This document shows, in pieces, positions 144-61,823 of a stretch of 64,000 bases of DNA. The notes under the pieces were generated by a model. It had not been told where the DNA came from and made no database searches. It saw only the letters and a list, made by a program, of their open reading frames with translations. Position numbers and translations under genes: made by a program. Location of the stretch: NCBI GenBank assembly GCA_003605065.1, contig QZJM01000063.1, positions 12,485 to 76,484 on the forward strand, given 5' to 3'. The DNA comes from Dethiobacter sp. GTDB lineage: Bacteria; Bacillota; Dethiobacteria; DTU022; UBA8154. The number at the start of each line of letters is the position of its first letter. The stretch's first letter is position 1.

Positions 144-1511
144 ATGGCTTTTGATTCTGTAAAAAAAGTAGCGGCTGAATTTGCTCTGGACAGGGCCATA
201 AATTATATTACAAAAGATCCAGAAAAAAATCTGTCTACACTCCTTGATTTTATCGAAAAAGTAGCCATAGCTCCCGACCACAAAGAGGCAGTAAAAAAGT
301 TGAAAGCTCACTTCAAAAATAATCCCCAAATCATGGCGCAGACCCGGCGCATTGCCAGTAACCCCAAAATGTTATACAACCTCTTTAATTCCTGGGTCAT
401 TGACGGGACTTTCCTGGGCAGGCCCAAACGGGAAAAACTCAGCAGGGAACTTGGCATAAATATTCCCGCTTTAATTTTGATAGATCCTACCTCTGCCTGT
501 AATTTGCGCTGCGAAGGCTGCTGGGCAGGGGAGTACAGTAAGACAGATCACCTCGAACCAGAGTTGTTCAGCCGGATTATCTCGGAAGCCAAGGAACTGG
601 GAATTCATTGGATTGTTCTTTCCGGGGGCGAGCCTTTCTGTTATCCTTACCTGCTGGATGTGGTAGCCGATCATCCTGAGTCTGTGTTTATGGTTTACAC
701 CAACGGTACACTAATTAATGAGAAAGTAGCCGATCGCCTGGCCGAACTGGCTAATTTATCCCCTGCTTTCAGCCTGGAAGGCTGGCGCGAGCATACTGAT
801 ACCCGCAGGGGCACAGGCACCTTTGACAAGGTTATAAATGCTATGGACCTTCTGAGGGAAAGAGGGGTTTTCTTCGGTGCTTCCGTAACATCCATGCGCA
901 ATAATATTTACGAACTTTTTAGCACTGAATTTATCGATTTTCTTGTAGAAAAAGGTGTAACCTATATGTGGTCTTTTCACTATATTCCTGTAGGGCGCGA
1001 CCCCAATGTAGAGCTGATGCTTATTCCTGAACAGCGGCTCTGGATGCTGGAAAGAGTCAGGGAACTGAGACGGACAAAACCTGTGTTTATCGCTGATTTC
1101 TGGAATGATGGGGAATATACCGGGGGATGTATTGCCGGCGGCAGGCAGTACTTCCACATTAATGCTGCCGGTGACGTGGAGCCCTGCGCCTTTGTCCATT
1201 TTGCCGTAGATACTATTAAGGATAAAAGCCTGAAAGAAGTCCTGGGGAACCCCCTGTTCAAAGCTTACCAGAGGGAGCACCCCTTTAATAAAAACCACCT
1301 GGCTCCCTGCCCCATCATAGATTCCCCGGGGGCTTTAAGGAAAATGGTCAGGGAATGCGGGGCGCATCCAACCCATAAGGGAGCGGAACAAGTCCTGGGG
1401 GGAGAAGTAGCTGAATACCTGGACGATAATTCGCAGCGCTGGCTGCAGCTGGCCGATGAATTTAAGGCGGGAACCGTAGAACTAGATGAAGAGGTTAGTG
1501 CCGGAAAATAG
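144..1511 (+). CDS. radical SAM domain protein (CxxxCxxC, possible SPASM/twitch C-terminal region)
   Basis: ORF 126..1511. CNLRCEGC motif after a ~110-aa N-terminal extension. RBS GGGAGGGG precedes the ATG at 144. TAG stop. Confidence 0.65.
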   Translation: MAFDSVKKVAAEFALDRAINYITKDPEKNLSTLLDFIEKVAIAPDHKEAVKKLKAHFKNNPQIMAQTRRIASNPKMLYNLFNSWVIDGTFLGRPKREKLSRELGINIPALILIDPTSACNLRCEGCWAGEYSKTDHLEPELFSRIISEAKELGIHWIVLSGGEPFCYPYLLDVVADHPESVFMVYTNGTLINEKVADRLAELANLSPAFSLEGWREHTDTRRGTGTFDKVINAMDLLRERGVFFGASVTSMRNNIYELFSTEFIDFLVEKGVTYMWSFHYIPVGRDPNVELMLIPEQRLWMLERVRELRRTKPVFIADFWNDGEYTGGCIAGGRQYFHINAAGDVEPCAFVHFAVDTIKDKSLKEVLGNPLFKAYQREHPFNKNHLAPCPIIDSPGALRKMVRECGAHPTHKGAEQVLGGEVAEYLDDNSQRWLQLADEFKAGTVELDEEVSAGK

Positions 1512-4453: not shown

Positions 4454-4474
4454 TTTTAAAAAACAACTGCATAA

Positions 4475-4768
4475 TAGCTGAAGAAGGGGAGAGTAGGGGC
4501 AGGAAAAGCCTAAGTGAGCCGGGGCTAGTGCGAACCCGGTGCCGGAACTGCTCTGAAGCGCACCCCGGAGGCGAAAGCTGAAGCCTGGAGGCAGGACCGT
4601 TTCCTTAACAAGCGGGCTTCCCGGTGTGTAGGCTTTTCCGGGTAAAATCCGTTAACGTTATGCTGCTTAGAGTTCCTGCAGCAGCCTTGAGGAGGGCCCA
4701 AAAGGGCCAATAAAGGTGGTACCGCGAGAATGCCTCTCGTCCTTTTGGAAGAGAGGCTCTCTTTATTT
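4475..4768 (+). promoter_or_regulatory. T-box riboswitch leader with intrinsic terminator, upstream of argC
   Basis: AGAGTA (GA/K-turn motif) at about 4490. Canonical T-box sequence AATAAAGGTGGTACCGCG at 4709..4726. Terminator hairpin GCCTCTC..GAGAGGC (4732..4757) plus TCTCTTTATTT. Confidence 0.7.
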
Positions 4769-4783
4769 AAGGGGGTATTTTTG

Positions 4784-5821
4784 ATGCGCGTGGGGATAAT
4801 CGGTGTTACAGGTTATACGGGAAGCGAGCTTTTAAGACTTGTTTTTGCTCATAAGGGTGTAGAGCTTACCTATGTTACCTCCCATTCCTTTACGGGAAAA
4901 CCCCTGCCCGAAGTGCATCCGCACTACCTGGGCATCCTGGAACCGGTATGCCGCCCTTTTTCTGTAGATGAGGCCGTGGAGAAGGCAGACCTGGTTTTTT
5001 CCGCCCTGCCGCACGGGGAGTCCATGGAAGCGGTCTCTCTGTTACGCGAGGCGGGCTTAAAGGTTATAGATTTAAGTGCCGATTTCCGCCTGGCAGATGC
5101 AAATCTCTACCTGGAGTGGTATAAAAAAGAGCATAGTGCACCCCGGCTTTTGGCGCAGGCCGTATACGGCTTGCCGGAACTTTACAGGGAGCAGATAAAG
5201 AAGGCCTCCCTGGTGGCTAACCCGGGCTGCTACCCCACTTCGGTTATTCTGGCCCTGGCCCCGCTGGCGGCCAGAGGCGTGGTGGACTGGGATACGCTGG
5301 TAGTGGACGCCAAGTCAGGGACTTCCGGGGCCGGGCGGGTGCCTTCACAGGTCCTGCATTTTCCTGAATGTGCGGAAAATTTTCGGGCTTACCGGGTTGC
5401 CCAGCACCAGCATACCCCGGAGATGGAGCAGGAGTTGAGCAAACTGGGGGGCCGGAAGGTGAGTTTTACCTTTGTGCCCCATTTGCTTCCCATGATCAGG
5501 GGTATTCTCAGCACCATTTACACGGGTTTGACAGTCCCCATCACGGAGGAAGAAATCCTGGATATGTACCGGGACTTTTACAGGGAAGAAAAATTTGTCA
5601 GGCTGCTGCCTCCACCTTTATTGGTGGAGACAAGAAACGTTTACGCCAGCAACTATTGTGATCTCTCTATCAGGTGGGACTCCCGCAACAACAGGTTAAT
5701 TATTCTTTCGGCCCTGGATAACCTGGTTAAAGGCGCTGCCGGGCAGGCTGTACAGAATATGAATCTTATGCTGGGCTTCAAGGAGGAAAAGGGACTGGAA
5801 ATGGTTCCCTTAAGGCCCTGA
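4784..5821 (+). CDS. argC: N-acetyl-gamma-glutamyl-phosphate reductase
   Basis: GVTGYTGSELLRL NAD-binding N-terminus. Start ATG at 4784 after RBS AAGGGGGT. The ORF-track start at 4730 would include the T-box terminator. Confidence 0.9.
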   Translation: MRVGIIGVTGYTGSELLRLVFAHKGVELTYVTSHSFTGKPLPEVHPHYLGILEPVCRPFSVDEAVEKADLVFSALPHGESMEAVSLLREAGLKVIDLSADFRLADANLYLEWYKKEHSAPRLLAQAVYGLPELYREQIKKASLVANPGCYPTSVILALAPLAARGVVDWDTLVVDAKSGTSGAGRVPSQVLHFPECAENFRAYRVAQHQHTPEMEQELSKLGGRKVSFTFVPHLLPMIRGILSTIYTGLTVPITEEEILDMYRDFYREEKFVRLLPPPLLVETRNVYASNYCDLSIRWDSRNNRLIILSALDNLVKGAAGQAVQNMNLMLGFKEEKGLEMVPLRP

Positions 5822-41505: not shown

Positions 41506-42036
41506 TTGGAAAAGCGGAAAGGTCTTGTTCTTGTTTATACCGGAAACGGGAAGGGAAAGACAACGGCGGCACTGGGCCTGGCCCTGAGGGCTATGGGGCA
41601 TGGCTGTCGCGTGTTTATGGTCCAGTTCAAAAAGGGAAATCCCGGTTACGGGGAAATCCAGGCCATTTATAAGTACCTGCCGGACTTCAAAGTTGTACAG
41701 TCAGGAAAAAATAAAATGTCTCCCGACGGGGTTCTTGCTGATGATGAGAACGGTGTTGTTTTAGATGGATTTAACCAGGGGAAAGAGGCGCTATGCAGCG
41801 GGGAATATGATCTGGTAATCTTTGACGAGATAAATGTGGTCATGGATCACGGGCAGCTTGCCGTTCAGGAAGTGACTGAGATGCTTTCCAGGCGCCCTGA
41901 ACACGTTGATGTTGTTTTAACCGGGCGTAATGCCCCTGAAGAAATAATTAATCTTGCCGATCTCGTCAGCGAGGTGAAAGAGATTAAACATCATTTCAAG
42001 GCGGGTGTTAAGGCCAGGGCGGGTGTGGAGTTTTGA
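41506..42036 (+). CDS. cobO: cob(I)yrinic acid a,c-diamide adenosyltransferase (CobA/CobO/BtuR family)
   Basis: YTGNGKGKTTAALG P-loop typical of the family. 176 aa. Confidence 0.85.
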   Translation: MEKRKGLVLVYTGNGKGKTTAALGLALRAMGHGCRVFMVQFKKGNPGYGEIQAIYKYLPDFKVVQSGKNKMSPDGVLADDENGVVLDGFNQGKEALCSGEYDLVIFDEINVVMDHGQLAVQEVTEMLSRRPEHVDVVLTGRNAPEEIINLADLVSEVKEIKHHFKAGVKARAGVEF

Positions 42037-42053
42037 CCAGAGAACATTCTCAA

Positions 42054-42872
42054 ATGAAAAAAAGAAAAATATCGTCTTCCTCCACGAAAAAATCCGACAA
42101 GAGCATACTCGGTAACAGGATAAGATCTTTCCGCGTTGAACGGGGGCTTACCCTGAATCAGCTTGCCGGTATGGCCGGGCTTTCGGCATCGTATTTAAGC
42201 ACGATTGAACGGGGCCTCAAAAAACCGTCAATTCCTGTGCTGAAACAGATTAGCGAGGCGCTCAATGTTTCTCCTTCTTTGCTTATTAGAACAGAGGAGG
42301 AAGCTTTTACGGGAAGTAAAATGCGTTTTCTTCGCGAGGGTAGAGGACTATCTGTAGAGGAACTTGCTGAAATCAGTGACATTCCGGCCCCAATGATTTC
42401 CAAATTTGAATCCGGTGAGGCTCAACCCGACTACGAACAACTGGAGCGCCTCGCTGAGGCTTTGAATTTAACGGCAACATGTTTTGTAGAAAAAAGCTAC
42501 TATAAGACGAGTATTGGTGACCGCCTGAAACAGCTCAGGGAAGCCCAGGGAATGACGCTTTCATTTCTGGCTGAAAAAGCTGGTGTTTCTCCTGGCCTGA
42601 TCAGCCAGATCGAAGGCGGTTATACCATCCCTTCCCTGGATACTCTGGAACGGATCTCTGTAGTACTGGGAACTTCACTTAATTATTTCTTACTTGAACA
42701 CGAGGAGGTAGAGAATCTTCTGACTTCCCTTGGGCCTGATTTACTCGAACTCCTCAGTGATCACAATGTCCAGGCTGTGCTGCGCTCCATTCGTGATTTT
42801 AATTCCGCAGAACTTCGTTATGTTCTTAATTATTTGCAATTTTTTAAAAGAAACCGCAAAATACTTTCTTAA
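42054..42872 (+). CDS. XRE-family transcriptional regulator with three tandem HTH_XRE domains
   Basis: Three repeats of the ~60-aa cro/C1-type HTH (IRSFRVERGLTLNQLA.., MRFLREGRGLSVEELA.., LKQLREAQGMTLSFLA..). Confidence 0.75.
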   Translation: MKKRKISSSSTKKSDKSILGNRIRSFRVERGLTLNQLAGMAGLSASYLSTIERGLKKPSIPVLKQISEALNVSPSLLIRTEEEAFTGSKMRFLREGRGLSVEELAEISDIPAPMISKFESGEAQPDYEQLERLAEALNLTATCFVEKSYYKTSIGDRLKQLREAQGMTLSFLAEKAGVSPGLISQIEGGYTIPSLDTLERISVVLGTSLNYFLLEHEEVENLLTSLGPDLLELLSDHNVQAVLRSIRDFNSAELRYVLNYLQFFKRNRKILS

Positions 42873-43015: not shown

Positions 43016-43277
43016 GCTTATGTAACCCTGCCAATAAAAAAATTAATACAATTAAATTCCACTCTTTAATCCTGCGGAATTTTTTATTATGCCCCTTATT
43101 TAGTAGCAGTAAAAATAAATTTTTTTAATAAATAATTTAGTAAAAGACAAATTACATTATTTTAATTTTAATATTGTTTTAAGTTTTAGATTTAAATGAT
43201 AATTTAAAAAAGGTAAAAAAGTTAAAGGTTAAAAACTAGAGGTTTCGGGCAAGTAATAAATAAGGGAGGCAAAAAAA

Positions 43278-49271: not shown

Positions 49272-50009
49272 ATGGGAAAGAGCTGTGGAGAACGGGTGAT
49301 ATTTGTGAGAGTTAAAATTCCGTATCCATTTTTGGACTTTGAAAATTTGGATTTACAGATTAAAAAAATGGGTGCTGATCTGGTGGGATTTGGTGATGTG
49401 AGTTCCGGCCTTGCTCCTGAATTTTCTCATATTCCCAAAGCCATTGCCCTTGGCATTAAGTATCCGGTATTTGAGGTAGATATTAATAAACCAAATTGTT
49501 TTTTGGAACGGTGCTTTTCCATCGATAAGCGTTTGCAGGAGATTCAGAAAAAAGTTGCGGCAATTTTAAGAAATAACGGCTGGCGGGCGTTGCTAATCCC
49601 CCCGGACTCTCACCGGGAAATCTCCAGTTTTATTGCCAGGTTGTACCATTTATTTCCTCACAAAACAGCAGCTACTTGCTCCGGGCTTGGCTGGATCGGC
49701 AAAAACGGGCTGTTGATCAGTCAGGAATTCGGGCCGCGTTTGAGCTGGGCTACAGTTTTAACGGATGCACCCCTTTTGCTAACCCCTTATCCTATTACTA
49801 TCAGCCACTGCGGTAATTGCCGCTATTGTGTGGACGCCTGCCCGGCTGGAGCCATTCGTAACGTTCTCTGGGAGCGGAAGAACAGTTATGAACCTTTAAT
49901 TGATGTACAGCGCTGCTTTGCCCAGTTGCAAAAAAACCAGGAACTCTACGGGCATTTTTCCTGTGGGGTTTGCGTACTGGTTTGCCCGCAGGGTATATCA
50001 CAAAAGTAA
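49272..50009 (+). CDS. QueG-like (epoxyqueuosine reductase-like) 4Fe-4S protein
   Basis: GLGWIGKNGLLIS..FGPRLSWA and two Cys clusters (CGNCRYCVDACP; CGVCVLVCP) resemble the QueG C-terminal region. The ORF is shorter than canonical QueG. Confidence 0.55.
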   Translation: MGKSCGERVIFVRVKIPYPFLDFENLDLQIKKMGADLVGFGDVSSGLAPEFSHIPKAIALGIKYPVFEVDINKPNCFLERCFSIDKRLQEIQKKVAAILRNNGWRALLIPPDSHREISSFIARLYHLFPHKTAATCSGLGWIGKNGLLISQEFGPRLSWATVLTDAPLLLTPYPITISHCGNCRYCVDACPAGAIRNVLWERKNSYEPLIDVQRCFAQLQKNQELYGHFSCGVCVLVCPQGISQK

Positions 50010-50061: not shown

Positions 50062-50090
50062 TTGACAAAATTAACTTTACTTTATATAAT
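50062..50090 (+). promoter_or_regulatory. consensus sigma-A promoter TTGACA-17-TATAAT upstream of the cobalamin riboswitch
   Basis: TTGACA at 50062..50067, 17-nt spacer, TATAAT at 50085..50090. Confidence 0.55.
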
Positions 50091-50179
50091 TAAAGACAAC
50101 ATAAACTTTACTGTTACTAAATATTTTAACACTTAGAGTTGTTAATAAATATGTTAAATATACTTGGTAATGATTCGGG

Positions 50180-50336
50180 TGCTTCTCTTTCACCTGGAGA
50201 AGATAATAGGGAACCAGGTGTAATTCCTGGGCGGTCGCGCCACTGTGAAGGGAGAGCTTATTTCAGAAAGGTCACTGGATAAAATCCGGGAAGGCAGAAA
50301 TAAGCTATGACCCCAAAGTCAGGAAACCTGCCCGTT
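50180..50336 (+). promoter_or_regulatory. cobalamin (B12) riboswitch
   Basis: AATAGGGAACCAGGTGTAATTCCTGG, B12 box GCCACTG (50239..50245), CCGGGAAGGCAG, and AGTCAGGAAACCTGCC all match conserved blocks of the cobalamin riboswitch. Confidence 0.85.
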
Positions 50337-50423
50337 TCATAGTACATAAAAAAACCTTCTTCGCGTTAAGGGAGGGGTAATTAACATATTAAAACTCGCG
50401 CGGATAAGGTGGTATTATTTAAA

Positions 50424-50561
50424 ATGGAGAATATGGTTAATAAAAAGACCAATTCTACTGCTATTGTTAACAATCTTTTGGGCAAAGAATGGTCTTTTGT
50501 TGTTCATAAGACCGGTGCAACACAATATTTTCTCATTACGCAGTTAATGCCTGTTTATTAA
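50424..50561 (+). CDS. small hypothetical ORF (45 aa) between the riboswitch and pylSn
   Basis: ATG after TAAGGTGGT. It is followed by an imperfect 10-bp hairpin plus T-run (50562..50600). Its coding status is uncertain. Confidence 0.2.
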   Translation: MENMVNKKTNSTAIVNNLLGKEWSFVVHKTGATQYFLITQLMPVY

Positions 50562-50667
50562 AGCGGCTATATCCTAATAGGAGTTATATGGCCGCTCTAA
50601 TTTTTGAACAGATCAAAAGCGATTTTCAGGTGTAGACAGTAAATAGCTTGCCGGGGGTTAAAATAGT

Positions 50668-51006
50668 ATGCCTCTTAAAAATGTTATAGAAGCCAAAAAG
50701 CAGAAAGGGGAAAAAATTGATAATAAAGTAAGATATATCCAGAAACATAAACCCATATTTTCAGTGCTTGAAAAAATTAAGCTTTGGCCTTCAAGTTCAG
50801 GTATCTTACATGGTATTAAACATTTAACCAGGGATGGCAATTATATAGTAATTGAAACACATTGTCATGAGCAGATAAAGGTAAGGATATCAAAAAACAG
50901 CCGAGCTGCAAGGTGGCTGAGGAACAAGTGGGCTGAAAGGGTATGTACTGTTTGTCGTATTCCGTCCTGGAAAGTTAATAAGTATCTAAATACATCGTTT
51001 AAATAA
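50668..51006 (+). CDS. pylSn: pyrrolysyl-tRNA synthetase N-terminal tRNA-binding domain protein
   Basis: 112 aa. Matches the bacterial PylSn free-standing domain. Directly precedes pylSc. Confidence 0.85.
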   Translation: MPLKNVIEAKKQKGEKIDNKVRYIQKHKPIFSVLEKIKLWPSSSGILHGIKHLTRDGNYIVIETHCHEQIKVRISKNSRAARWLRNKWAERVCTVCRIPSWKVNKYLNTSFK

Positions 51007-51018
51007 GTGGAGGCATTA

Positions 51019-51834
51019 ATGAAGTTTACTCATGTGCAAATACAACGTCTTATTGAACTTGGTTTAAATACCGGCCTTGAGTATGAATTTGCCAATAGTA
51101 TTGAAAGGGAAGCAAATTTTAAGCAACTGGAAAAAGAACTAGTCAAACAAAACAAAGCTGCATTAAAAAGATTGCATGAAGAGAAACGTCCTTTGCTTAA
51201 AACTGTAGAACAAAAACTTATTGGTGTTTTAACTGAAAATGGATTTATTGAAGTAATCACACCTATTTTAATGTCCAGGGGCTTGCTGGAAAAGATGGGA
51301 TTAACTCCTGAATTATTTCGACAGGTGTTTTGGGTTGATGAGGGGAAAAAAAGGTGCTTGCGCCCAATGCTGGCTCCTCATTTATACTACTTGTTAAGAA
51401 AAATGAAAAAAATATGGCCTGCTCCCCTGAAAATATTTGAAGTTGGACCGTGTTTTCGCAAGGAGTCAAAGGGAGGGTACCATATGGAAGAATTTACCAT
51501 GTTGAATCTGGTGTGCTTTAGCTGTACTGAACCCCTTGCTGAGTTGCTGGATCTGGCTGATAAACTGCTTGACCCTTTTAATATACCATTTAACATTACT
51601 GATGAGTATAGTGAAGTTTACGGCCGGACGATTGATATAGTAGTAAATGATGTAGAAATTGCTTCTGCCGCGGTTGGCCCGCATGAGCTTGACAAAAACT
51701 GGGATATTACCGGCAGCTGGTATGGAATCGGTTTGGGATTGGAACGTTTGGCTATGGTTCTCCAGGGGTATCAAAATATAAGGCGCGTGAGCAGGAGTTT
51801 AAGTTACCAAGATGGGGCCCGCCTTAATATTTAG
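51019..51834 (+). CDS. pylSc: pyrrolysyl-tRNA synthetase catalytic domain (class II aaRS core)
   Basis: Class II motifs (FRKESKG..; GIGLGLERL). ATG at 51019 after GTGGAGG. Stop is TAG. Confidence 0.9.
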   Translation: MKFTHVQIQRLIELGLNTGLEYEFANSIEREANFKQLEKELVKQNKAALKRLHEEKRPLLKTVEQKLIGVLTENGFIEVITPILMSRGLLEKMGLTPELFRQVFWVDEGKKRCLRPMLAPHLYYLLRKMKKIWPAPLKIFEVGPCFRKESKGGYHMEEFTMLNLVCFSCTEPLAELLDLADKLLDPFNIPFNITDEYSEVYGRTIDIVVNDVEIASAAVGPHELDKNWDITGSWYGIGLGLERLAMVLQGYQNIRRVSRSLSYQDGARLNI

Positions 51835-51867: not shown

Positions 51868-52980
51868 ATGCCGGACGAAAAATTTCCTGTTGAGAATTTC
51901 ACAAGAAAGGCTTTAATGAAGCAGCCGTTAACTGCCTCGGAAATTGCGGCCCTGGTTTACCTGCGTGATGAAGGGCAAATTGCCAGGCTTAAAAAGGGTG
52001 CCTGCCAGATCAGAACACAATTTTTTGGCAATCATGTTTTCCTTTACGGGTTTGTTTATTTTAGCACATATTGTCGAAACCTTTGCTCATTTTGTAATTA
52101 TGCGGCGAAGAATAAGATGAACAGGTATCGCAAATCAGTTCAGGAGATACTGGCAGTATGCAGAAGCCTGCAGTTCTCAGGAGTTCATCTTATTGATCTG
52201 ACCATGGGAGAGGACCCTCATTATTTAACACATGAAGGTGATGCTCTCCTGGAACTGGTTAAATTTGTTCGCTCCCAGGTAGATTTGCCGCTAATGTTGT
52301 CACCGGGAGTTATCGGAGAACATTTGCTTGAAAGCCTGGCTGAACTTGGAGTGGCCTGGTATGCCTGTTATCAGGAAACCTATAATCCTAATTTATTTCA
52401 ACAGCTAAGGGTGGGGCAAAGTTTTACCAGGCGTTTGGGGGCGAAACAGAAAGCCAGAGAAGCTAACCTGCTGGTAGAGGATGGGATGCTGTTGCATCTC
52501 GGAGAGAGTGAACAGGATATTATTTCTTCCATTCTCGCTATGCAAAGACTCGGAGTTCACCAGGCCAGGGTTATGGCTTATGTTCCTCCGGAACCTAACG
52601 GTCTACCTAAAAGGCGCTCTCACAACCTGGAAGAAGAAACGGTTATCGCCATTTTGCGCCATGTTTTTCCGGACAGATTGATTCCCGCGTCACTGGATAT
52701 AGAAGGTTTAAAAGGTCTCTCTTCCCGCTTGAAGGCCGGAGCCAATGTCGTTTCTTCCATTATTCCCCCCATGACCGGGCTAAGGGGAGTATCTCAAACT
52801 ACCCTTGATATTGATGAGGGGAGAAGGACTGTGGAAAACGTCAAAGAGGTGTTGAAATCGCTGAATTTGGAAGTTGCACCTTTAAGTATGTATTTTGCCC
52901 TGGTGCAGCGTTTTAGAGAGGAACAAAGAATGGGAACTATGGGGAATATAGGGGAAGAAAGGGTAGGCTTGCTTCTATGA
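51868..52980 (+). CDS. pylB: methylornithine synthase (radical SAM lysine mutase)
   Basis: FSTYCRNLCSFCNY radical-SAM cluster motif. Close overall match to archaeal PylB. Confidence 0.9.
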   Translation: MPDEKFPVENFTRKALMKQPLTASEIAALVYLRDEGQIARLKKGACQIRTQFFGNHVFLYGFVYFSTYCRNLCSFCNYAAKNKMNRYRKSVQEILAVCRSLQFSGVHLIDLTMGEDPHYLTHEGDALLELVKFVRSQVDLPLMLSPGVIGEHLLESLAELGVAWYACYQETYNPNLFQQLRVGQSFTRRLGAKQKAREANLLVEDGMLLHLGESEQDIISSILAMQRLGVHQARVMAYVPPEPNGLPKRRSHNLEEETVIAILRHVFPDRLIPASLDIEGLKGLSSRLKAGANVVSSIIPPMTGLRGVSQTTLDIDEGRRTVENVKEVLKSLNLEVAPLSMYFALVQRFREEQRMGTMGNIGEERVGLLL

Positions 52981-53861
52981 CAAGGTTAAAGCAGGAAAAT
53001 TTACTCTCTCTCGATCTTAGGAAATATGATTGTGAACTGGAGGAAAAAGCCGGGAAGACTTTGGCTCAGCTTGTTCAGGAAGGGGCGGGCTTAACTCAAC
53101 CCCTGGAAATGTTTACAAAGGAAAAAGCAGCAGTTATACCGATTACTGCAGGCCTGGGAATAATTACAGGTTTTACTGCGGCAGTGGAATCAATACTTAA
53201 GCATGTGGGTCTTAATGTTAAACTGACGGAAAACACAGATATGGCAGGAATAAGTGAAGCTCTGGACTGGGGTGCAAATCTTCTCTTTTGTGCTGATGAC
53301 AACATCTTTTTCGTGCTGGATATGCTTAGTGGTAGCTATGTTGATAATGCCCTGGCTACAGCGGATATGTTTATGTTTGCGATCAACAAGCTGGCTGATG
53401 GTCTCCAGGGGAAGAGCACTTTGATTGTAGGCCTGGGTAAAGTTGGTAATGCCTGCTTGCTATCTGCTTTGCAGAAAGGTGCAAAAGTGTACGTTTATGA
53501 TAAATTGCCGGAGCATTGTGTAACCGCTGCCCGTAAGTATCCAGGTGTATCCCCGGTAAAGGAATCATTAATGAATGCCTGCCGGAAAGCGCAGGTAATT
53601 ATTGATGCTTCCCCGGAAGGAAGTTTTATCAGGGATGAGTGGTTGTCAGATGATGTGGTAATCGGGGCACCCGGTGTGCCGCTCGGTTTGGAGGAAAAAG
53701 CATATAAACGGCTGTTTAAAAGAGTTATTCATGATTGTCTTCCCCTGGGGGTTGCCGGTATGGTTGCCAAAGTTTTCTCCCAGCGGAAAGGACTTAACAA
53801 GTCTGTAAGAAAGAAGGTGGGATATGAGCAAGTGGTAACAGCACTCGGCAGGCTTGACTAA
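52977..53861 (+). CDS. pylD: pyrrolysine synthase (NAD-dependent dehydrogenase)
   Basis: LIVGLGKVGNACLLSALQKGAKVYVYD Rossmann motif paralleling the archaeal PylD region. 4-nt overlap with pylB. Confidence 0.85.
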   Translation: MTRLKQENLLSLDLRKYDCELEEKAGKTLAQLVQEGAGLTQPLEMFTKEKAAVIPITAGLGIITGFTAAVESILKHVGLNVKLTENTDMAGISEALDWGANLLFCADDNIFFVLDMLSGSYVDNALATADMFMFAINKLADGLQGKSTLIVGLGKVGNACLLSALQKGAKVYVYDKLPEHCVTAARKYPGVSPVKESLMNACRKAQVIIDASPEGSFIRDEWLSDDVVIGAPGVPLGLEEKAYKRLFKRVIHDCLPLGVAGMVAKVFSQRKGLNKSVRKKVGYEQVVTALGRLD

Positions 53862-53963: not shown

Positions 53964-55133
53964 ATGAGTAAACGGCATCTTCTGTTTCTGGTCTCCGGAG
54001 TTGTTGCCTTGCTGGTTTTAAGCACTACCGCTTTCGCCCAGGAAGTTACCCCTCTTGCTGAACAGCTTTTCCGCTATCACCGCGGGCAGGACATCTTTTT
54101 TATGTTCATGCTGGTGGCATTTCTGATGTTGTTCATCAAACGCTATGAGTGGGGCGTTTGTTTGATGACAATGCTGATCATATCGGTTGCCTTTCCTTTC
54201 TATTTTGCAGTGCAGACAATTTATTTTGGCAATGCCTGGAATATGGATCTGATTATCCTGGGAGTAGTCTGTGCCATTACCCTGGTAATCTCTGCAGGTA
54301 TGTTTCTCGGCCAGGTTAAAACATGGCAGTATATAATTATTGGATTATTATTTGTTATCGCTTATTCCATTAATGAATGGTTTCTTTTTACCTACCTGGA
54401 AGGAGTTGCTGATATGGGCGGCAGCCTTCTGGTCCATGCTTTTGCAGCCTACTTTGGCTACGGGATGATCTTGTCGTTACGGCATAAAAAGATCATGGAT
54501 GCTCCCATGAAAGTAACGGTCCACAGCGTTTCTTTTGTCTGGCTGGCATCCATGTTGCTATGGATGCTCTGGCCATCATTTACAACTGCGCTGCTTGCAC
54601 CGGACCAGGTAATCGGCGGTATGCTTGCCACTTACATGGCCTTAATGGCTTCCACTGTGATAACTTACCTGGTGCTTCTGGCAATCCATAAAAAAATCGA
54701 TCCTTTAGTTTATACCTATGCCATCCTGGCTGGTGGGGTAGCTATTGGCTCTACGGTTGATCTTGTCGGGCCGTGGGCTGCTTTTGCTATAGGACTGCTG
54801 GCCGGCATTGTTTCCTCCCTGTGCTTTGTTTACCTGCATCCTACCCTTGAAAAAGTACTGGGTGTTCGTGATGTAATGGGTGTACACAACCTGCATGGTG
54901 TTCCAGGAATTCTTGGTGCTCTTTTTGCTATTCCTTTTGCCGGAGCCATACAGGTTACAGCTGCAGTAGGGACATTTGTAATAGCAATAGTTACCGGACT
55001 GGTTGCCGGGTTGATTATGAGAGCTTTCGGAAGAAACGAGGAATACATCCTAGACGATGCTGAAAGCTTCTCCATGGAAGACGCCAGGGGCACTGAAAGC
55101 GTTTCCATAGGAGAATCAGGTATTTCTGTATAA
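53964..55133 (+). CDS. Amt/MEP/Rh-family ammonium (methylammonium) transporter with N-terminal signal peptide
   Basis: Signal peptide ..TTAFAQEV. 11 predicted TM segments. Amt signature region VDLVGPW..GVHNLHGVPGILGALF. Confidence 0.8.
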   Translation: MSKRHLLFLVSGVVALLVLSTTAFAQEVTPLAEQLFRYHRGQDIFFMFMLVAFLMLFIKRYEWGVCLMTMLIISVAFPFYFAVQTIYFGNAWNMDLIILGVVCAITLVISAGMFLGQVKTWQYIIIGLLFVIAYSINEWFLFTYLEGVADMGGSLLVHAFAAYFGYGMILSLRHKKIMDAPMKVTVHSVSFVWLASMLLWMLWPSFTTALLAPDQVIGGMLATYMALMASTVITYLVLLAIHKKIDPLVYTYAILAGGVAIGSTVDLVGPWAAFAIGLLAGIVSSLCFVYLHPTLEKVLGVRDVMGVHNLHGVPGILGALFAIPFAGAIQVTAAVGTFVIAIVTGLVAGLIMRAFGRNEEYILDDAESFSMEDARGTESVSIGESGISV

Positions 55134-55208: not shown

Positions 55209-55280
55209 GGAGGGTTGATCGGCAGGATCACGTAGACTCTAAATCTGCGCAGCCGGGTTTGACTCCCGGACTCTCCTCCA
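55209..55280 (+). tRNA. pylT: tRNA-Pyl (anticodon CUA), encodes CCA
   Basis: GGAGGGT..ACTCTCC 7-bp acceptor stem. 6-bp anticodon stem CGTAGA/TCTGCG with loop CTCTAAA. A single nucleotide separates the acceptor and D stems. Short variable loop. T-arm CCGGG-TTTGACT-CCCGG. These are all hallmark pylT features. Confidence 0.85.
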
Positions 55281-55368
55281 GTTACCCAACAGATTTAGTA
55301 TCCTTGCAAGGAGGTGAATCTTTTGACCGGCATTTAAAAGTTCAATCTTCCGGGAAGGAGGTGATTCT

Positions 55369-56014
55369 GATGAGTAAAGAAATTCTGGCCAAATTACAAC
55401 GTGCTGTCGAAGAACAGGATGTGGAAGCCGCTGAGGCTGCGGCCCGTGAAGCAGTTGCCGCAGGGATCGATCCCTTTGTGGCTATCAACGAGGGCCTATC
55501 TCCCGCTATGCAGACCATTAGTGATCTGTTTGATGACGGAGAACTGTATGTGCCCCAGATTTTGTTTGCGGCAGAGGCTTTTATGAATGCCATGGCTATC
55601 CTGACAGAAAAGCTTTCGGCAGAAGAAGTAAGCAAAACTAAGCGCGGCAAAGTTATCGTGCATACAGTCCAGGGAGATATCCATGACATCGGAAAAAATA
55701 TTGTCGGCACAATGTTAACAGCCAACGGCTTTGAAGTAATTGACCTGGGCCGCGATGTTCCGATTGATGTGGTTGTGGAGAAAGCAAAAGAGCTCGGAGT
55801 AGACATGGTTACCGGTTCGGCGCTTATGACCACCACTATGCCATCCCAAAGGGATATTGTTAAGGCACTCGACGAAGAAGGTATCAGGGGAAAAGTCAAA
55901 TGCATGTTTGGTGGTGCCCCGGTTACTAAGGAGTGGGTCGACCAAATCGGTGCCGATGGTTATGCAAGTAACGCCTCTGAAGCGGTAATTGTAGCGAAGG
56001 AACTTATGGGTTAA
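55369..56014 (+). CDS. mtmC: monomethylamine corrinoid protein
   Basis: GDIHDIGKNIV DxHxxG motif. Strong similarity to archaeal MtmC across the full length. RBS GGAAGGAGG. The ORF-track start at 55259 overlaps pylT and is rejected. Confidence 0.9.
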
Positions 56015-56042
56015 AAAAATCTTTAAGAAAGGAGTGAGAAGA

Positions 56043-57422
56043 ATGTCTAATGTTCCCAAGGTTGGGGTATTTGAAGCCTATGCCAGGGCAACTACAGGAC
56101 CACGCGTCCCTGAAAAAGACTGGGACTACAAAATCATTCCCCAGGCCGCCAGCCGCCTGAAGGAAAAATACGGCATCAAAATGGATAAAAGGAAGATGAT
56201 TCCCACAGATGAAAATCTAATAAACAATCTCTTCAGGGCAGGCATGGAAATGCTGGTGGAATGTGGAGTTTACTGTATGGATACTGGGCGGGTTATCAAG
56301 TACACCGAAGAAGAAGTCTGGACGGCCGTTAAAAATGCCCCCAGGTGTTTAACGCTCGGTGAAGGCCGTGATTCAAGAGAACTCAAAGGGCGCAGGTATG
56401 ACGACAGCAGGCCGCCTATCATCCAGGGGGGACCTACCGGAGCACCGGTAGCAGAGCAGGACTTTGTAGCCATGCACGAAGCCTATGCCCGTGAGCCGAT
56501 CGTCGATACCATTGTTGACGGTGTTATGCAGACGATCAATGGCTACGATCCGAGGCCTAACACCCCCTTCGAAATTGCGGCGGTCAAGAACGAAGCGATG
56601 ATGATTAGACTGGCACAGGTCCGTGCCGGTCGCCCGGGGATGGGATTGTAGGGCAACGAAACTTCACTCAGTGCCGCAGGGGTTATCGCTGCTGATTTTC
56701 CCGGCGGCATGAGGGCATCAGATAGCCATGAAGTTTCCCAGCTGAACGAGCTGAAGATAGATGTAGGTGCACTATCTTTTGTTGCTCACTATGTTTTGGC
56801 TGGAGATATCATCATGTGTGAACAGATGCCCATCTTGGGAGGCTATGCAGGTGGTCTGGAGGAAACGACCATTGTTGACGTTGCCACCACGCTGAATGCC
56901 TTCCTAATGACACAGGCGCACTGGCATCTTGATGGCCCGATCCATGTGCGGTGGGGGATTACCACGGCCAGAGAAGTGCTGGCGGTAGCCGGCCACTGTG
57001 CACGGGCAATCGAGGAAAATACACATTTACTTCTTGGTAACCAGTATTATACATTGGCCGGTCCCTGCACGGTAATGTGCCTGTTGGAAACGGCAGCCCA
57101 GTCTATCACCGATACAGCCAGCGGCCGGGAACTTGTTTCCGGGGTAGCCTCGGCCAAAGGAGTGGCCACAAACTATACTACTGCCATGGAAGCCCGCTTC
57201 ATGGGTGAAGTGGCCCATGCTGTAGCCGGGATGGATTTAGAAAAGGTTAACGGGATTCTTGATGAGCTGGTAGGTATGTACGAGACCCAGTACAAGACAG
57301 CTCCCAAAGGAAAAACTTTCAATGAGTGCTATGATCTTGTCAGGTTGACTCCTTCTGACGAGTACATGCAGGTTTATAAAGAGGCGTGGGGGATTTTAAA
57401 TAAACTCGGCCTCAAGTACTAA
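56043..57422 (+). CDS. mtmB: monomethylamine methyltransferase with in-frame UAG (56649..56651, codon 203) decoded as pyrrolysine
   Basis: Two same-frame ORFs (56034..56651 and 56709..57422) are separated only by TAG. Flanking sequence ..GMGL-UAG-GNETSLSAAG.. and ..DSHEVSQLNELKID.. matches archaeal MtmB around its Pyl codon. pylT and pylSBCD are in the same locus. Confidence 0.9.
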
Positions 57423-57523
57423 GGGCCAGGGGTAAGATGCAGCAGCCTGTACCCCGGTCCGCTTTCTTGGGCCGGGGTACAGGGTATTTTGTTTACGTAA
57501 TTAAAAAAAAGAGGAGAAGAACT

Positions 57524-58183: not shown

Positions 58184-58720
58184 ATACAGGAATTAAACGT
58201 TCCCCGTTATGGAAAAGTTGTGGCTGGTAGCAAATTCACTGTTGTTGCCGCACAAAATCCTTATGACGATGTTGGCACAGTACGCATTAGCCGTGCTTTT
58301 ATGGATCGAATTTGTCGCATTACTTTAGATTATCAAACCGAGGCCGAAGAAATAGAAATTGTTAAAAATAGAACCGGTTTATCTGATGATAATTTGGTCT
58401 TGTGGGCTGTAAAGCTAACGCGGCAGTCACGAAGTCACGATGATATTAAAATGGGAGCTTCAGTGCGTGCTGCCATTGACATAGTTGCCTTGAGCGAAAG
58501 TATGAAAAAAAGAGGGGCTTTCACCAGGGATAATGTTAAAGAAGCTGTTTTTATGGCTCTAAGCAGTAAAATATGGCTGACTGAAATGACCCCCAAAACC
58601 CCGGAACATGTGATACGTGAAATTATCAATGTTGTTGAACAAACAGAGGGGATTAGTTATTTTCCTGCTGCAGGACAAGAAGAACAAAAACCGCAGAAAA
58701 AAAAAGCGATGAACAATTAA
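58184..58720 (+). pseudogene. MoxR-like AAA+ ATPase fragment (C-terminal two thirds only, Walker A region missing)
   Basis: VVAAQNP..AFMDRI sensor/arginine-finger region of MoxR. The open frame begins at a stop at 58181 with no N-terminal ATPase half. Confidence 0.55.
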
Positions 58721-58737: not shown

Positions 58738-58959
58738 TTGCCGCTAATCAGGCTAGATCAAGATCATGCAAGTGATCTTTCTTTGCCCTATCGTCTGGCG
58801 ATGTACTACAGTAATAATCCGGAAGAACTAGAGAATTTTTTTGAACAGGATGAGGCCATTACTATTTTCGGCACTTTTTTTGATATGCTTAAGTCGGAGG
58901 CAAAAAAGATAGCTAAGGGTATACATATTTATCTTTTATCTGCTGTATCAAATTTTTAA
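58738..58959 (+). CDS. small hypothetical ORF (73 aa)
   Basis: ORF only, with no recognisable motifs. Confidence 0.2.
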   Translation: MPLIRLDQDHASDLSLPYRLAMYYSNNPEELENFFEQDEAITIFGTFFDMLKSEAKKIAKGIHIYLLSAVSNF

Positions 58960-58976: not shown

Positions 58977-60173
58977 TTGAACGTGGGTGTTCTGGGAGGT
59001 GGATTACAGGGTCTGGAGGCGGCTTATCTTCTTAAAAAAGCCGGTCACAGGGTTTTGATGCTTGAAAAGAGGCCACATGCTCCTGCTCTGGGGTTGGCTG
59101 ACGAAAAGTTTTGTTTTAACCTTACAGCTACCTGTCAACAGGAACTGCTAGATTTTTTAAAGAAAGTTGATGTAATTATTCCCGCTACGGAAAATAAAAC
59201 CACCCTTGTGGTTATGAATGAGGCGGCGAAAAGATATGCCAAAGTTTTCTGCTTTGATTCCCAGGCATATGAGCTAAGCAGCAGTAAAAGCCTGTCCAAT
59301 AAGCTTTTTTCTCAGCTGGCACTGCCCAGGCCTATTCCCTGGCCGGATTCCTCTTTCCCCTTAATAGTAAAACCGTCTGAGGAAAGCGGAAGCCGCGGTG
59401 TAAAAATTGTTTTTAACCAAAATGAACTGGATAAGGTCCTAACCGAAGAAAAACTGTATAAAGGCGGTTTTATCATTGAGGAATTTCTGGAAGGTCCTTC
59501 ATATTCCATAGAGGTGGTTACAATAAACGGTGAAGGTTTCGCTTTTGAAACAACTTTGCTTGGTTTTGACGAGCTTTTTGACTGTAACAGGGTTATTGCC
59601 CCCAACGGGTTAGATGAAAAGAGTAATAAAGAAATGCAGGAAATGGCACTGCGTATCGCGCAGTCCTTAAAGCTTACAGGTATCATGGATCTGGAAACTA
59701 TTTTACATGAAGGAAAGTTTAAAGTGCTGGAAATTGATGCCCGTTTGCCGAGTCAAACACCTACTGTTGTCTACAAGGCAACAGGCCTGAATCTGGTTTC
59801 TTATTTATTGTCGTCATTTCTTCACAAAGATTTACCGGGGGTAGAAGCAGGTGCAAAAAGAGCTGTAATTTATGAACATCTTTATTTTTGTGACGGCATG
59901 GTCTTTTTCCCCGGAGAACATATCATCACCTCCTGTAAAGAAAATCTTTTTTATATGGAGGATTTTTTTGGTGCAGACGAAGCCATTACGAACTGTGTGG
60001 AAAAAAAGGAGCAAAAATCCTGGGTTGCTACTGTTATCATAACGGGCCACAACCTGGAACAGGCCCGTACCAAAAGAGAATATATGCTGAAAAGGATTTT
60101 AGAAAAATACCGGGCTGAATTATTTCCTTCTAAAAATATCGAGAAAACTGCAGTAAAGGGAAGAAAAAGTTAG
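58977..60173 (+). CDS. pylC: pyrrolysine biosynthesis ATP-grasp ligase (3-methylornithine--L-lysine ligase)
   Basis: ATP-grasp. ..LEIDARLPSQTPTVVYKATGLNLV.. closely parallels archaeal PylC. TAG stop. Confidence 0.9.
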   Translation: MNVGVLGGGLQGLEAAYLLKKAGHRVLMLEKRPHAPALGLADEKFCFNLTATCQQELLDFLKKVDVIIPATENKTTLVVMNEAAKRYAKVFCFDSQAYELSSSKSLSNKLFSQLALPRPIPWPDSSFPLIVKPSEESGSRGVKIVFNQNELDKVLTEEKLYKGGFIIEEFLEGPSYSIEVVTINGEGFAFETTLLGFDELFDCNRVIAPNGLDEKSNKEMQEMALRIAQSLKLTGIMDLETILHEGKFKVLEIDARLPSQTPTVVYKATGLNLVSYLLSSFLHKDLPGVEAGAKRAVIYEHLYFCDGMVFFPGEHIITSCKENLFYMEDFFGADEAITNCVEKKEQKSWVATVIITGHNLEQARTKREYMLKRILEKYRAELFPSKNIEKTAVKGRKS

Positions 60174-60185
60174 GGAGGCTTGGAG

Positions 60186-61823
60186 ATGAACAAAATTGGT
60201 ATTGCCCTGGATTTGGGGACCAGCGGTTTTCGAGGACAGGCCATCGACTTGTCTGCGAATGCGGTTTTAAAAACAGTAATAACTGCCCGTCATCCCCTGC
60301 CTGGCGCAAACGTGATGGATCATCTCAACTTTGCCATTATGGCTGGGCCGGATGTAGCTCACCAGATCATCATGGCTACAATAAACCAGATTATAGATCT
60401 GCTAAATATGCCCGGTTTCGCCATTGAGTGTTTTGCCGTTTGCGGCAACCCGATTCAACTTTCCCTCTTTGAAAATATTGAAATCAGGGATTTGGCCTAT
60501 GCGGGTGAAAATTACCGCCGCCAGCTGGGGATTGTCTCTCCTGATCGCAGCAGCAAGGAATACCCGGCTGAGCGGTTTCCACTGTTAAACTTACCGGGGA
60601 ATTGCCTGGTTTTTATTCCCCCTGCTGTAAAACATGAAATAGGGGCAGATGCTCTGGCCATGTTGATTCTTTCCGGAATTCTGGATAAGGAAGAAATTTG
60701 CCTGGCTACCGATTACGGGACAAATGCTGAAATGGCTCTGAAAGTGGGAGATAAAATCATTACCGGTTCTGCCGCTGCCGGCCCTGCTCTGGAAGGACAG
60801 CATGTTGAGAACGGGATGCTGGCTGCACCTGGGGCCATTTCTGACCTCCGACCGGAAAACGGCGGCTACCGTTGTCTTGTTCTCAATACTGAGATGCAGC
60901 CTGAGGACGGAGATTTACTTACTCTTGACAATGGAACTGTACTTCAAAAGGGCCGGTTAGAGGCCAAAGGAATAACCGGAACGGGTGTAATAGCAACAGT
61001 TTCACAGGGTATGGACAGCGGCCTGGTAAGCCTTCCCAATATTAAAACTGCTAGCGGCTCACTGCATCTTTCCAACGGGATTCGTTTTAGTAAGAAGGAC
61101 TTAATCGAAGCCGGGAAGGCTATCGGCGCAATCCGGGCCGGTTACCTCACACTGGCCGCTGAGGCAGGAGTCTCTGTAGAAGATATCCGTGTTGCTTTTA
61201 TGGCCGGTGCATCGGGAACTTATGTGGATGCACGTAAAGCGATGAACATCGGCATGGTTCCTCCTAAGGTAAAGGAAATATATCAGGTTGGTAATACTTC
61301 CTTGTTGTTGGCAAGAGAAATTGTGCAGGATCCCCGGAGATTAAAAACTCTTGATGAAATTGCCCGACAGTTACGGGCAAGACATTGTATGTTTGGTCTT
61401 TCCAAGGTTTTTGAAAAGGCTTATTTGCTGGAGCTTTCATACTGGACGGAAGGCCTCCCATGGGAACTTTATAAAAAATACGCCAGAATGTACCAGCTTC
61501 CGGAGTTGCCGCAGCTTCACACCGATGTAAATGTTACTAAAAAGGTCACCCGTGATATAAGGGATATTGGGAAAGATGGCTTGATCACCATAGAGAGAGT
61601 CGGTGAAGAAAGACACTGGTTTGTACCCGGGTGTGTCAACTGTGGCCAGTGTGTAGAAGAATGCCCTGAAAATGCTATAAAGCTCGATGATACTCTGGGC
61701 GTTGTGATGCGCATGGACTGCTGCAGTGGAACTGCCTGCCAGCGCTGTGAGCATATTTGTCCGGAAAAAGTTTTTCGTCTTTCAGAATTTTGGATGAACT
61801 CTTTAAAAATTAGCTGTGATTAG
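60186..61823 (+). CDS. ramA: RamA-like corrinoid reductive activase (ASKHA ATPase plus C-terminal 2x[4Fe-4S] ferredoxin domain)
   Basis: ATG at 60186 after GGGAGG. C-terminal CVNCGQCVEECP and C..C..CQRCEHICP clusters. Confidence 0.8.
   Translation: MNKIGIALDLGTSGFRGQAIDLSANAVLKTVITARHPLPGANVMDHLNFAIMAGPDVAHQIIMATINQIIDLLNMPGFAIECFAVCGNPIQLSLFENIEIRDLAYAGENYRRQLGIVSPDRSSKEYPAERFPLLNLPGNCLVFIPPAVKHEIGADALAMLILSGILDKEEICLATDYGTNAEMALKVGDKIITGSAAAGPALEGQHVENGMLAAPGAISDLRPENGGYRCLVLNTEMQPEDGDLLTLDNGTVLQKGRLEAKGITGTGVIATVSQGMDSGLVSLPNIKTASGSLHLSNGIRFSKKDLIEAGKAIGAIRAGYLTLAAEAGVSVEDIRVAFMAGASGTYVDARKAMNIGMVPPKVKEIYQVGNTSLLLAREIVQDPRRLKTLDEIARQLRARHCMFGLSKVFEKAYLLELSYWTEGLPWELYKKYARMYQLPELPQLHTDVNVTKKVTRDIRDIGKDGLITIERVGEERHWFVPGCVNCGQCVEECPENAIKLDDTLGVVMRMDCCSGTACQRCEHICPEKVFRLSEFWMNSLKISCD

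Follow-up and report, generated by a model that had tools for sequence, protein, structure and literature searches.

A cobalamin riboswitch at the head of the pyrrolysine genes of Dethiobacter and its candidate leader-ORF relay

A cobalamin (B12) riboswitch stands at the head of the pyrrolysine (Pyl) genes in a 64,000-nt stretch of DNA from Dethiobacter sp. (contig QZJM01000063.1), referred to here as the window. We propose, tentatively and rating the whole a little below an even call, that this class-I (long-form) element is functional and gates the operon that runs from pylSn to mtmB, and possibly genes further on, in the activating sense, by way of a short leader open reading frame (ORF) and the terminator that follows it. 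Transcription would start from a promoter upstream of the aptamer. Binding of a corrinoid would bring the aptamer loop L5 (UCGCG) into a kissing interaction with the loop L13 (CGCG) and lock the hairpin P13, which in the window would free the ribosome-binding site (RBS) of the leader ORF; with no corrinoid bound, that site would be hidden by a sequestor helix. A ribosome reaching the leader stop codon would block the terminator, and RNA polymerase would read on into pylSn; with the leader untranslated, the terminator would form and the pyl genes would be off. The net effect would be to permit amber-codon reassignment only in the presence of corrinoid, which is the cofactor of MtmC. Reading UAG as sense has a cost across the proteome that Pyl-decoding bacteria must keep in check, little is known of how they control their pyl genes, and the locus offers a cis-acting small-molecule sensor for such control. 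Judging from the sequence comparisons below, expression of this genetic-code expansion probably depends in part on B12 supply.

The aptamer and its distribution among Pyl loci

When the window was scanned with the Rfam covariance models, the cobalamin family RF00174 (gathering score 31.5 bits) matched with 122.7 bits (E 2.6e-30) over model positions 1-189, i.e., the full model, which bears out the first-pass annotation of a B12 riboswitch with its conserved blocks. In the Rfam alignment, 50168..50180 pairs with 50330..50342 to form P1, and the core blocks GGGAACCAGGUG (50208..50219) and GCCACUG (50239..50245), as well as the B12 box AGUCAGGAAACCUGCC (50317..50332), align to the family consensus. 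GCCACTG had earlier been named as the B12 box; it is instead a core block sharing a base with the end of L5. L5 itself reads UCGCG (50235..50239) where the family consensus is UCCCG. A different loop, UGUAAUU (50217..50223), was considered as the kissing loop and set aside, its complementarity to the platform being inconsistent among loci and the true L5 being UCGCG (Rfam alignment; Procknow et al., 2023, PMC10653944). The strain variant L001, which is 99.68% identical to the window over 17 kb and was used for the comparison of substitutions, differs from the window at no position of the aptamer. We regard the aptamer as very probably a working corrinoid sensor, binding being predicted.

The loci compared, cited by L number, came from 80 PylSc sequences (one genome per species), 80 PylSn sequences from metagenomes and the contigs of the closest PylSc and PylSn relatives. 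Rfam proper was run on 29 genome loci plus selected close relatives, and a clade-specific covariance model built from three aptamers was run on 172 loci. Comparison of the pyl leaders of these loci recovered the same riboswitch, intact and ahead of pylSn, in L003 (104.8 bits), L004 (112.5 bits), L163 (126.6 bits), L164 (102.6 bits) and L166 (111.8 bits). By Rfam, RF00174 was absent from 27 other genome loci, drawn from Bacillota, Actinomycetota, Chloroflexota, Thermodesulfobacteriota, Spirochaetota and others. The clade-specific model returned no further copies in the 172 loci, a result in which divergent riboswitches could be missed where Rfam proper was not run, and an nhmmer match in L082 (5852..5933) was discarded, having no Rfam support at E <= 0.1. 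In a neighbour-joining tree of PylSn plus PylSc the riboswitch-bearing loci form one clade, in which PylS goes down to ~62% identity with the window. In the sister clade (L006, L085, L171 and L174) pylSn lies 28 nt past a URO-D-family (MtbA-like) gene, without a riboswitch.

The state found in the window, L003, L004 and L163 is riboswitch, short ORF, terminator hairpin and pylSn, in that order. L166 has the riboswitch and the short ORF and no clear terminator; in L164 the aptamer and platform run directly into the pylSn RBS, with neither short ORF nor terminator between. Broken aptamers, below Rfam detection at E <= 0.01, occur as two deletion alleles, one in L005, L167 and L168 and the other in L169 and L170, with identical PylSc (P0007). 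In one allele the 3' half of the aptamer and the 5' strand of P13 are gone (L167 keeps the P13 3' strand), in the other the aptamer core is missing and the platform is mutated, and both retain a 50-codon ORF and an inserted terminator that is absent from L166. The picture resembles one population caught in the course of losing its riboswitch. That the L005-type insertion had brought in a new promoter was entertained as the cause of the decay and rejected, as the scan gave no plus-strand site. In L083, L165, L175 and L177 the aptamer is cleanly absent and pylSn lies about 40-55 nt past the URO-D gene.

Since the relic copies fall below Rfam detection, a copy no longer under selection decays quickly. 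The deep persistence of the riboswitch, its quick decay where the linkage is broken and its direct abutment on pylSn in L164 argue, on comparative grounds, that the aptamer is under selection owing to the downstream pyl operon. Comparative genomics, with a single clade and the L164 arrangement, supports the earlier interpretation that the riboswitch is tied to the pyl genes, and we consider it likely that it controls the pyl operon.

The L003 contig (JAGVAS010000165.1) is labelled as a 'Desulfovibrio sp.' metagenome-assembled genome (MAG). Its DNA is 84-96% identical to the Dethiobacter window over the whole locus, and the contig is therefore probably mis-binned. The clade is small, uncultured and alkaliphile-associated. 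Judged solely by the MAG and sample names DeMMO, CROMO and CSSed, it may come from deep-subsurface, serpentinite and soda-lake sites.

Expression platform, leader ORF and terminator

Mutational work on two Bacillota riboswitches has established that L5 pairs with L13 of P13 and that this kissing loop stabilises P13 on corrinoid binding (PMC10653944). We take the hairpin at 50355..50375 to be the corresponding P13/L13 partner, the tertiary contact being predicted, because its loop complements the variant L5, its CGC is invariant and its helix covaries. L13 (CGCG at 50362..50365) is complementary to four bases of L5 (CGCG), and the CGC core is unchanged in 6/6 intact loci. Together with its outer helix (UAC 50343..50345 with GUA 50377..50379, a GYAC/GURC helix across loci), P13 is 95.9% paired across seven sequences, with three pairs changed on both sides, as against 53-75% for slid controls. 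The departure of L5 from its consensus, matched by CGCG in L13, reads as a compensatory exchange within the putative kissing loop. The sole change in the platform hairpin between the window and L001, G50370A, turns a G-U pair of P13 into A-U. Two other roles for P13 were rejected. As an intrinsic terminator it has no U-tract behind it in the window and none that is conserved elsewhere, and its purine strand AAGGGAGGGG has no conserved start codon downstream, as a regulated Shine-Dalgarno would. A start codon behind AAGGGAGGGG is found only in L003 (AUG-CGC-UGA) and in L164. The P13 3' end of L164 supplies the GUG start of a 12-codon ORF (343..383); GAGGG precedes this GUG by six nt, and the UGA of the ORF overlaps the pylSn AUG (AUGA).

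The window platform offers P13 a competitor. The leader Shine-Dalgarno belongs to a segment, 50398..50410, that is complementary to the P13 5' strand and L13 (50354..50366) as well, and because these are shared with the resulting sequestor helix, P13 and the sequestor helix are predicted to be mutually exclusive in the window. The sequestor helix is the minimum-free-energy (MFE) fold of the window platform in RNAfold. Its duplex, 50353..50366 with 50397..50411, has -16.4 kcal/mol against -8.4 +/- 2.3 kcal/mol for dinucleotide shuffles, a value reached by 3 of 1000. When P13 was forced, the unpaired fraction of the Shine-Dalgarno rose from 0.26 to 0.52 in the window, from 0.39 to 0.74 in L003 and from 0.32 to 0.53 in L166, and in none of the six loci folded did it fall. 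In these folding models the topology of the window platform is that of an activating switch, which suggests that the window is compatible with activation.

The 45-codon ORF reported earlier between the riboswitch and pylSn was found with ATG at 50424 and its stop codon at 50559..50561, preceded by the Shine-Dalgarno AAGGTGG (50406..50412). ORFs in the same position are 84 aa long in L003, 46 in L004, 48 in L163, 33 in L166 and 50 in L005, and in these five loci AAGGUGGU, followed 8-12 nt on by a start codon, is conserved. The leader peptides of the window and of the same five loci have no recognisable shared sequence, the leader ORF matched no Pfam or NCBIfam family, and the two substitutions that separate the window from L001 in its 138 nt are both non-synonymous. 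A conserved small protein was rejected as an explanation of the ORF, there being no family, no likeness between subclades and a predominance of non-synonymous changes (L166 versus L005 by eye).

Folding places the leader stop codon inside or against a strong hairpin with a U-run in five lineages, the hairpins being unrelated in sequence. In the window the UAA adjoins the stem that starts at 50562; the UGA of L003 lies within the 3' arm of the terminator hairpin, the UAA of L004 just after its 5' arm, the UAA of L163 in the loop of a 16-bp perfect stem and the UGA of L005 in the terminator hairpin loop. The window hairpin consists of a core stem (50562..50596), an optional extension (50557..50560 with 50598..50601) and TTTTT at 50601..50605. 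A consensus scan, which covered sigma-70-type promoters, gave no plus-strand promoter in the interval from hairpin to pylSn, either in the window (50606..50667) or in L005 (357..457). In L004 the U-run is ~5 nt from the pylSn RBS and ~20 nt from the pylSn start codon, which leaves no room for one. RNA polymerase must therefore pass these terminators to reach the pyl genes. The first-pass annotation had offered two options for the hairpin and T-run at 50562..50600. A regulated terminator gains from the stop-codon overlap in five lineages; the boundary of a separate unit is unlikely, given that read-through into pylSn is obligatory. A leader ORF that runs into a terminator has the anatomy of a translation-coupled attenuator, in which read-through would depend on the ribosome, and we lean slightly towards control passing through this relay.

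Sign of regulation and alternative readings

The physiological logic first attached to the locus, by which Pyl would be on when B12 is present, requires an activating switch, a sign with which the window platform is compatible. The anatomy of the window and the physiology point to activation, whereas the family prior and part of the comparison point to repression, so that for the window we hold the two signs about evenly poised. The strongest alternative keeps the riboswitch, the operon and the relay and reverses the sign: corrinoid would hide the leader RBS (the pylSn RBS in L164), and B12 sufficiency would lower Pyl and Mtm. It draws on several of the points that weigh against activation through a relay. 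A single natural activating corrinoid riboswitch has been reported, in 2023, and nearly all characterised ones repress (PMC10653944), which tips the prior towards repression. A local hairpin (ACCUU with AAGGU) that holds the Shine-Dalgarno forms alongside P13 in L004, L163 and L164, and the Shine-Dalgarno stays in it whether P13 is forced or not. In L164 the sequestor can be engaged by the free 3' strand of P1, so that the Shine-Dalgarno is released and its accessibility rises from 0.03 to 0.52, as would be expected of an OFF switch. The L166 P13 3' strand finds its partner in a pyrimidine tract downstream, a pairing equalled by 6 of 1000 shuffles and resembling the repressing P. megaterium metE design, and the L167 allele removes exactly the P13 5' strand while keeping the 3' strand, which in an OFF switch would lock expression on. 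The L003 equivalent of the sequestor duplex is no better than shuffles (395/1000), and the interchangeable purine and pyrimidine tracts of these leaders make RNAfold predictions promiscuous and weak.

The relay meets objections of its own. It is not universal, given the L166 and L164 leaders described above. The T-run of the window has five U only and lies 4 nt past the core stem unless the 3-4 bp extension forms, and the consensus terminator scan did not flag the window hairpin. Transcription and translation are often loosely coupled in Bacillota, which would weaken ribosome-dependent antitermination.

Repression, for its part, makes poor physiology, in that amber suppression and a corrinoid-dependent methyltransferase would be made when the cofactor is lacking. 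It also has to contend with a P13 5' strand that in the window is itself the anti-Shine-Dalgarno, so that forced P13 raises accessibility, and with the six folded loci, none of which lost accessibility on forcing. Thermodynamic folds of the platform alone, with a free P1 3' strand and with forced P13 were tried as a means of telling ON from OFF and given up, as the results differ between subclades. On this evidence we rate repression as rather unlikely.

It is improbable that the riboswitch, short ORF and terminator make up a self-contained B12-regulated unit, producing a small protein or RNA, with pyl expressed independently. B12 riboswitches controlling stand-alone non-coding RNAs are known (EutX/Rli55), and a strong hairpin with a T-run does part the short ORF from pylSn in five lineages. 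However, L164 has no short ORF or terminator ahead of pylSn and L166 no terminator, neither the window nor L005 has a promoter between terminator and pylSn and the L004 gap of about 25 nt is too short for one, the leader peptide is neither conserved nor matched by any family, and the module is found only ahead of pylSn and is lost or decays as a unit. That the aptamer is an inactive relic lying upstream of the pyl genes by chance is hardly credible: close relatives do hold decaying copies (L005/L167, L169), but full-length aptamers above 100 bits are kept in six lineages with PylS diverged to ~62-81% identity, the window and L001 aptamers are free of substitutions, and true relics drop below Rfam detection.

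Taken in its fullest form, the activating reading would make this a translation-acting corrinoid riboswitch that licenses a suppressor tRNA, its synthetase and Pyl biosynthesis, relays to RNA polymerase via the leader ORF and terminator, and is the first natural riboswitch to gate genetic-code expansion; we hold that broad statement as a possibility, with decidedly limited confidence. Should it prove activating, the element would bring the number of natural ON corrinoid riboswitches to two and would be the first of them to act on translation. If control of the pyl genes is true, the cobalamin regulon would reach beyond cofactor supply and B12-independent isozymes to a cofactor-consuming pathway and to genes of the translation apparatus. 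Close relatives, with the element intact, directly joined to pylSn, decaying or deleted, amount to a natural 'mutant' series for the mechanism, and the element could be used as a part to place orthogonal PylRS/tRNA-Pyl systems under conditional control.

Operon, genomic context and known systems

Table 1. Features of the riboswitch leader, the pyl operon and the surrounding island (window coordinates)
Feature	Position	Strand	Basis or remark
CobA/CobO/BtuR-type ATP:corrinoid adenosyltransferase	41506..42036		overlaps start of next gene; head of island
Triple-HTH regulator	42033..42872		three HTH_3 domains
Fe-S protein	49272..50009		last gene before promoter and riboswitch
Sigma-70-type promoter, TTGACA-17-TATAAT	50062..50090	+	consensus scan, 12/12 positions matched
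17-nt block ACTTTACTGTTACTAAA, candidate operator	50105..50121	+	identical in L003 (about 1312..1328)
Cobalamin riboswitch aptamer, RF00174 long form with P6 extension	50160..50349	+	Rfam covariance model
P13 hairpin: CCUUCUU 50355..50361, L13 CGCGUU 50362..50367, 3' strand AAGGGAGG 50368..50375	50355..50375	+	covariation
Sequestor segment GCGCGGAUAAGGUGG, holding leader Shine-Dalgarno AAGGUGG 50406..50412	50398..50412	+	MFE pairing
Leader ORF, 45 codons, MENMVNKK...MPVY	50424..50561	+	ORF call
Intrinsic-terminator-like hairpin and UUUUU, overlapping leader stop codon	50557..50605	+	folding
pylSn, small subunit of pyrrolysyl-tRNA synthetase	50668..51006	+	TIGR03912, 107.7 bits
pylSc, catalytic subunit	51007..51834	+	TIGR02367, 278.1 bits; 100% identical to 'MAG: Dethiobacter sp.' protein
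pylB	51868..52980	+	TIGR03910, 404.5 bits
pylD	52977..53861	+	TIGR03911, 202.3 bits
Amt-family permease	53964..55133	+	PF00909, 123.8 bits
pylT, tRNA-Pyl, anticodon CUA	55209..55280	+	ARAGORN
mtmC, corrinoid protein, start uncertain	55304..56014	+	B12-binding domains
mtmB, in-frame TAG 56649..56651	56034..57422	+	MtmB Pfam on both halves; PYLIS_1 91 bits, 56649..56748
Hairpin, 16 bp, 11 G-C pairs, U-rich tail	57446..57483	+	just past mtmB
pylC	58977..60173	+	PylC-like_N and ATP-grasp domains
RamA/RACo-like corrinoid activase	60180..61823	+	RACo_C_ter domain

The cluster holds what is expected of a bacterial pyl system, namely pylT(CUA), split pylSn and pylSc, pylB, pylC, pylD and a client with an in-frame UAG (Table 1). 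The gene order first given, pylSn-pylSc-pylB-pylD-amt-pylT-mtmCB, stands as listed and had left out pylC, which is present ~5 kb downstream. There it lies apart from pylB and pylD, past mtmB, a DUF2284 gene and two small ORFs (58220..58720 and 58738..58959, neither with a family match) and directly before the RamA/RACo-like activase. The Amt-family permease between pylD and pylT, which is also embedded in L171-L174, scores 77.6 bits, far below the curated ammonium-transporter cut-off of 343; we infer that it is probably a (methyl)ammonium transporter, and it may be a methylammonium importer dedicated to the pathway. The hairpin just past mtmB overlaps the annotated start of the DUF2284 ORF and may end, attenuate or stabilise the riboswitch-headed transcript. 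In L003 (2294..2296) and L005 (793..795) pylSn ends with TAG, the codon read as pyrrolysine; the window pylSn ends with TAA.

The consensus sigma-A promoter noted earlier ahead of the riboswitch was recovered at every position, and about 70-78 nt separate the end of its -10 hexamer from the aptamer. L003 has the identical TTGACA-17-TATAAT ahead of its riboswitch. In L004, L163 and L166 the riboswitch is without such a promoter and starts within about 10-50 nt of the stop codon of a URO-D-family gene; by this arrangement it would act within an operon and gate the Pyl/Mtm part only. With the upstream corrinoid-dependent genes outside riboswitch control, the thing gated would thus be the Pyl-dependent branch and not B12-dependent enzymes as such. 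Between promoter and aptamer (in L003 just past the promoter) sits the block ACTTTACTGTTACTAAA, which contains the direct repeat TTACT-G-TTACT. A second copy with three mismatches lies on the minus strand at 43099..43115, in the intergenic region between the genes for the triple-HTH regulator and a corrinoid protein and upstream of the latter; at least two matches occurred in 1 of 100 shuffles. The block may be a shared operator, a candidate for a second, substrate-related input.

The riboswitch sits within a one-strand methylamine island. The adenosyltransferase at its head would make adenosylcobalamin (AdoCbl), the usual ligand of long-form cobalamin riboswitches. Further on the island encodes a corrinoid protein, a RACo activase, an MtrH-like methyltransferase and two URO-D-family methyltransferases. 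Besides RF00174, the Rfam matches at gathering score in the window were PYLIS_1 (56649..56748) and a T-box leader (4472..4747, 100.7 bits) ahead of a semialdehyde dehydrogenase family gene (4730..5821). The annotated ATG of this gene overlaps the end of the T-box, so its true start is probably further downstream.

The first-pass annotation considered the arrangement undescribed, and a full-text search of literature outside most subscription journals likewise turned up nothing linking cobalamin riboswitches to pyrrolysine or pylS. The papers on riboswitches and pylS and those on Dethiobacter and pyrrolysine, judged by title and abstract, had nothing on such control. A catalogue of 535 cobalamin riboswitch sites lists B12 biosynthesis, B12 transport, cobalt transport and isozymes of B12-dependent enzymes only (PMC3766115), and the pyl regulon is outside all four of these functional categories. 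With the classical RF00174 riboswitches (btuB, cob/cbi, metE, nrdDG) the element shares the aptamer architecture, the B12 box, the P6 extension and an L5-L13 partner. It differs from them in having UCGCG and not UCCCG in L5, and in its target, which comprises a tRNA synthetase, a suppressor tRNA, amino-acid biosynthesis and a corrinoid-dependent methyltransferase.

Among the closest known mechanisms is that of the A. halodurans (Alkalihalobacillus) cobT riboswitch, which is activating and in which P13 excludes a negative element (Procknow et al., 2023, PMC10653944). Here, too, an L5-L13-stabilised P13 would share bases with a negative element, the same topology being predicted for the window. 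In cobT, however, P13 excludes an intrinsic terminator that follows at once, whereas in the window it would exclude a Shine-Dalgarno sequestor, with the terminator ~200 nt on behind the leader ORF, and activation in the window is inferred. A related relay is supported by experiment in M. tuberculosis ppe2: the Shine-Dalgarno of an upstream ORF is covered by a B12 riboswitch, and the downstream gene is expressed only if that ORF is translated (Kipkorir et al., 2024, PMC11260477). The likeness lies in a B12 riboswitch that acts via the Shine-Dalgarno of a short upstream ORF; the difference is that ppe2 is an OFF switch working by termination-reinitiation at an AUGA overlap, whereas the window leader ends in a terminator 106 nt before pylSn, where coupling would be transcriptional. 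Only L164, with its 12-codon ORF, has an AUGA stop/start overlap as at ppe2, which could be coincidence.

For the second half of the proposed relay, the translation-coupled E. coli pyrBI attenuator is a close parallel. There, a leader ORF runs into a terminator hairpin, a close ribosome prevents termination and the sequence of the peptide is unimportant. Its input is polymerase pausing at low UTP, whereas here it would be riboswitch-controlled initiation at the leader. At the level of physiology the locus resembles Acetohalobium arabaticum, in which pyl expression is reportedly substrate-dependent (as Prat and co-workers are said to have described in PNAS in 2012), i.e., a bacterium that confines its Pyl machinery to conditions where methylamine metabolism is useful. 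To our knowledge, neither an RNA sensor nor a cofactor input is on record for that system, and the Natroniella and Halanaerobiaceae loci scanned with Rfam gave no cobalamin riboswitch. Set against these systems, the Dethiobacter element is a standard sensor, an ordinary member of RF00174, with an unprecedented regulon and an unusual leader-ORF-to-terminator relay.

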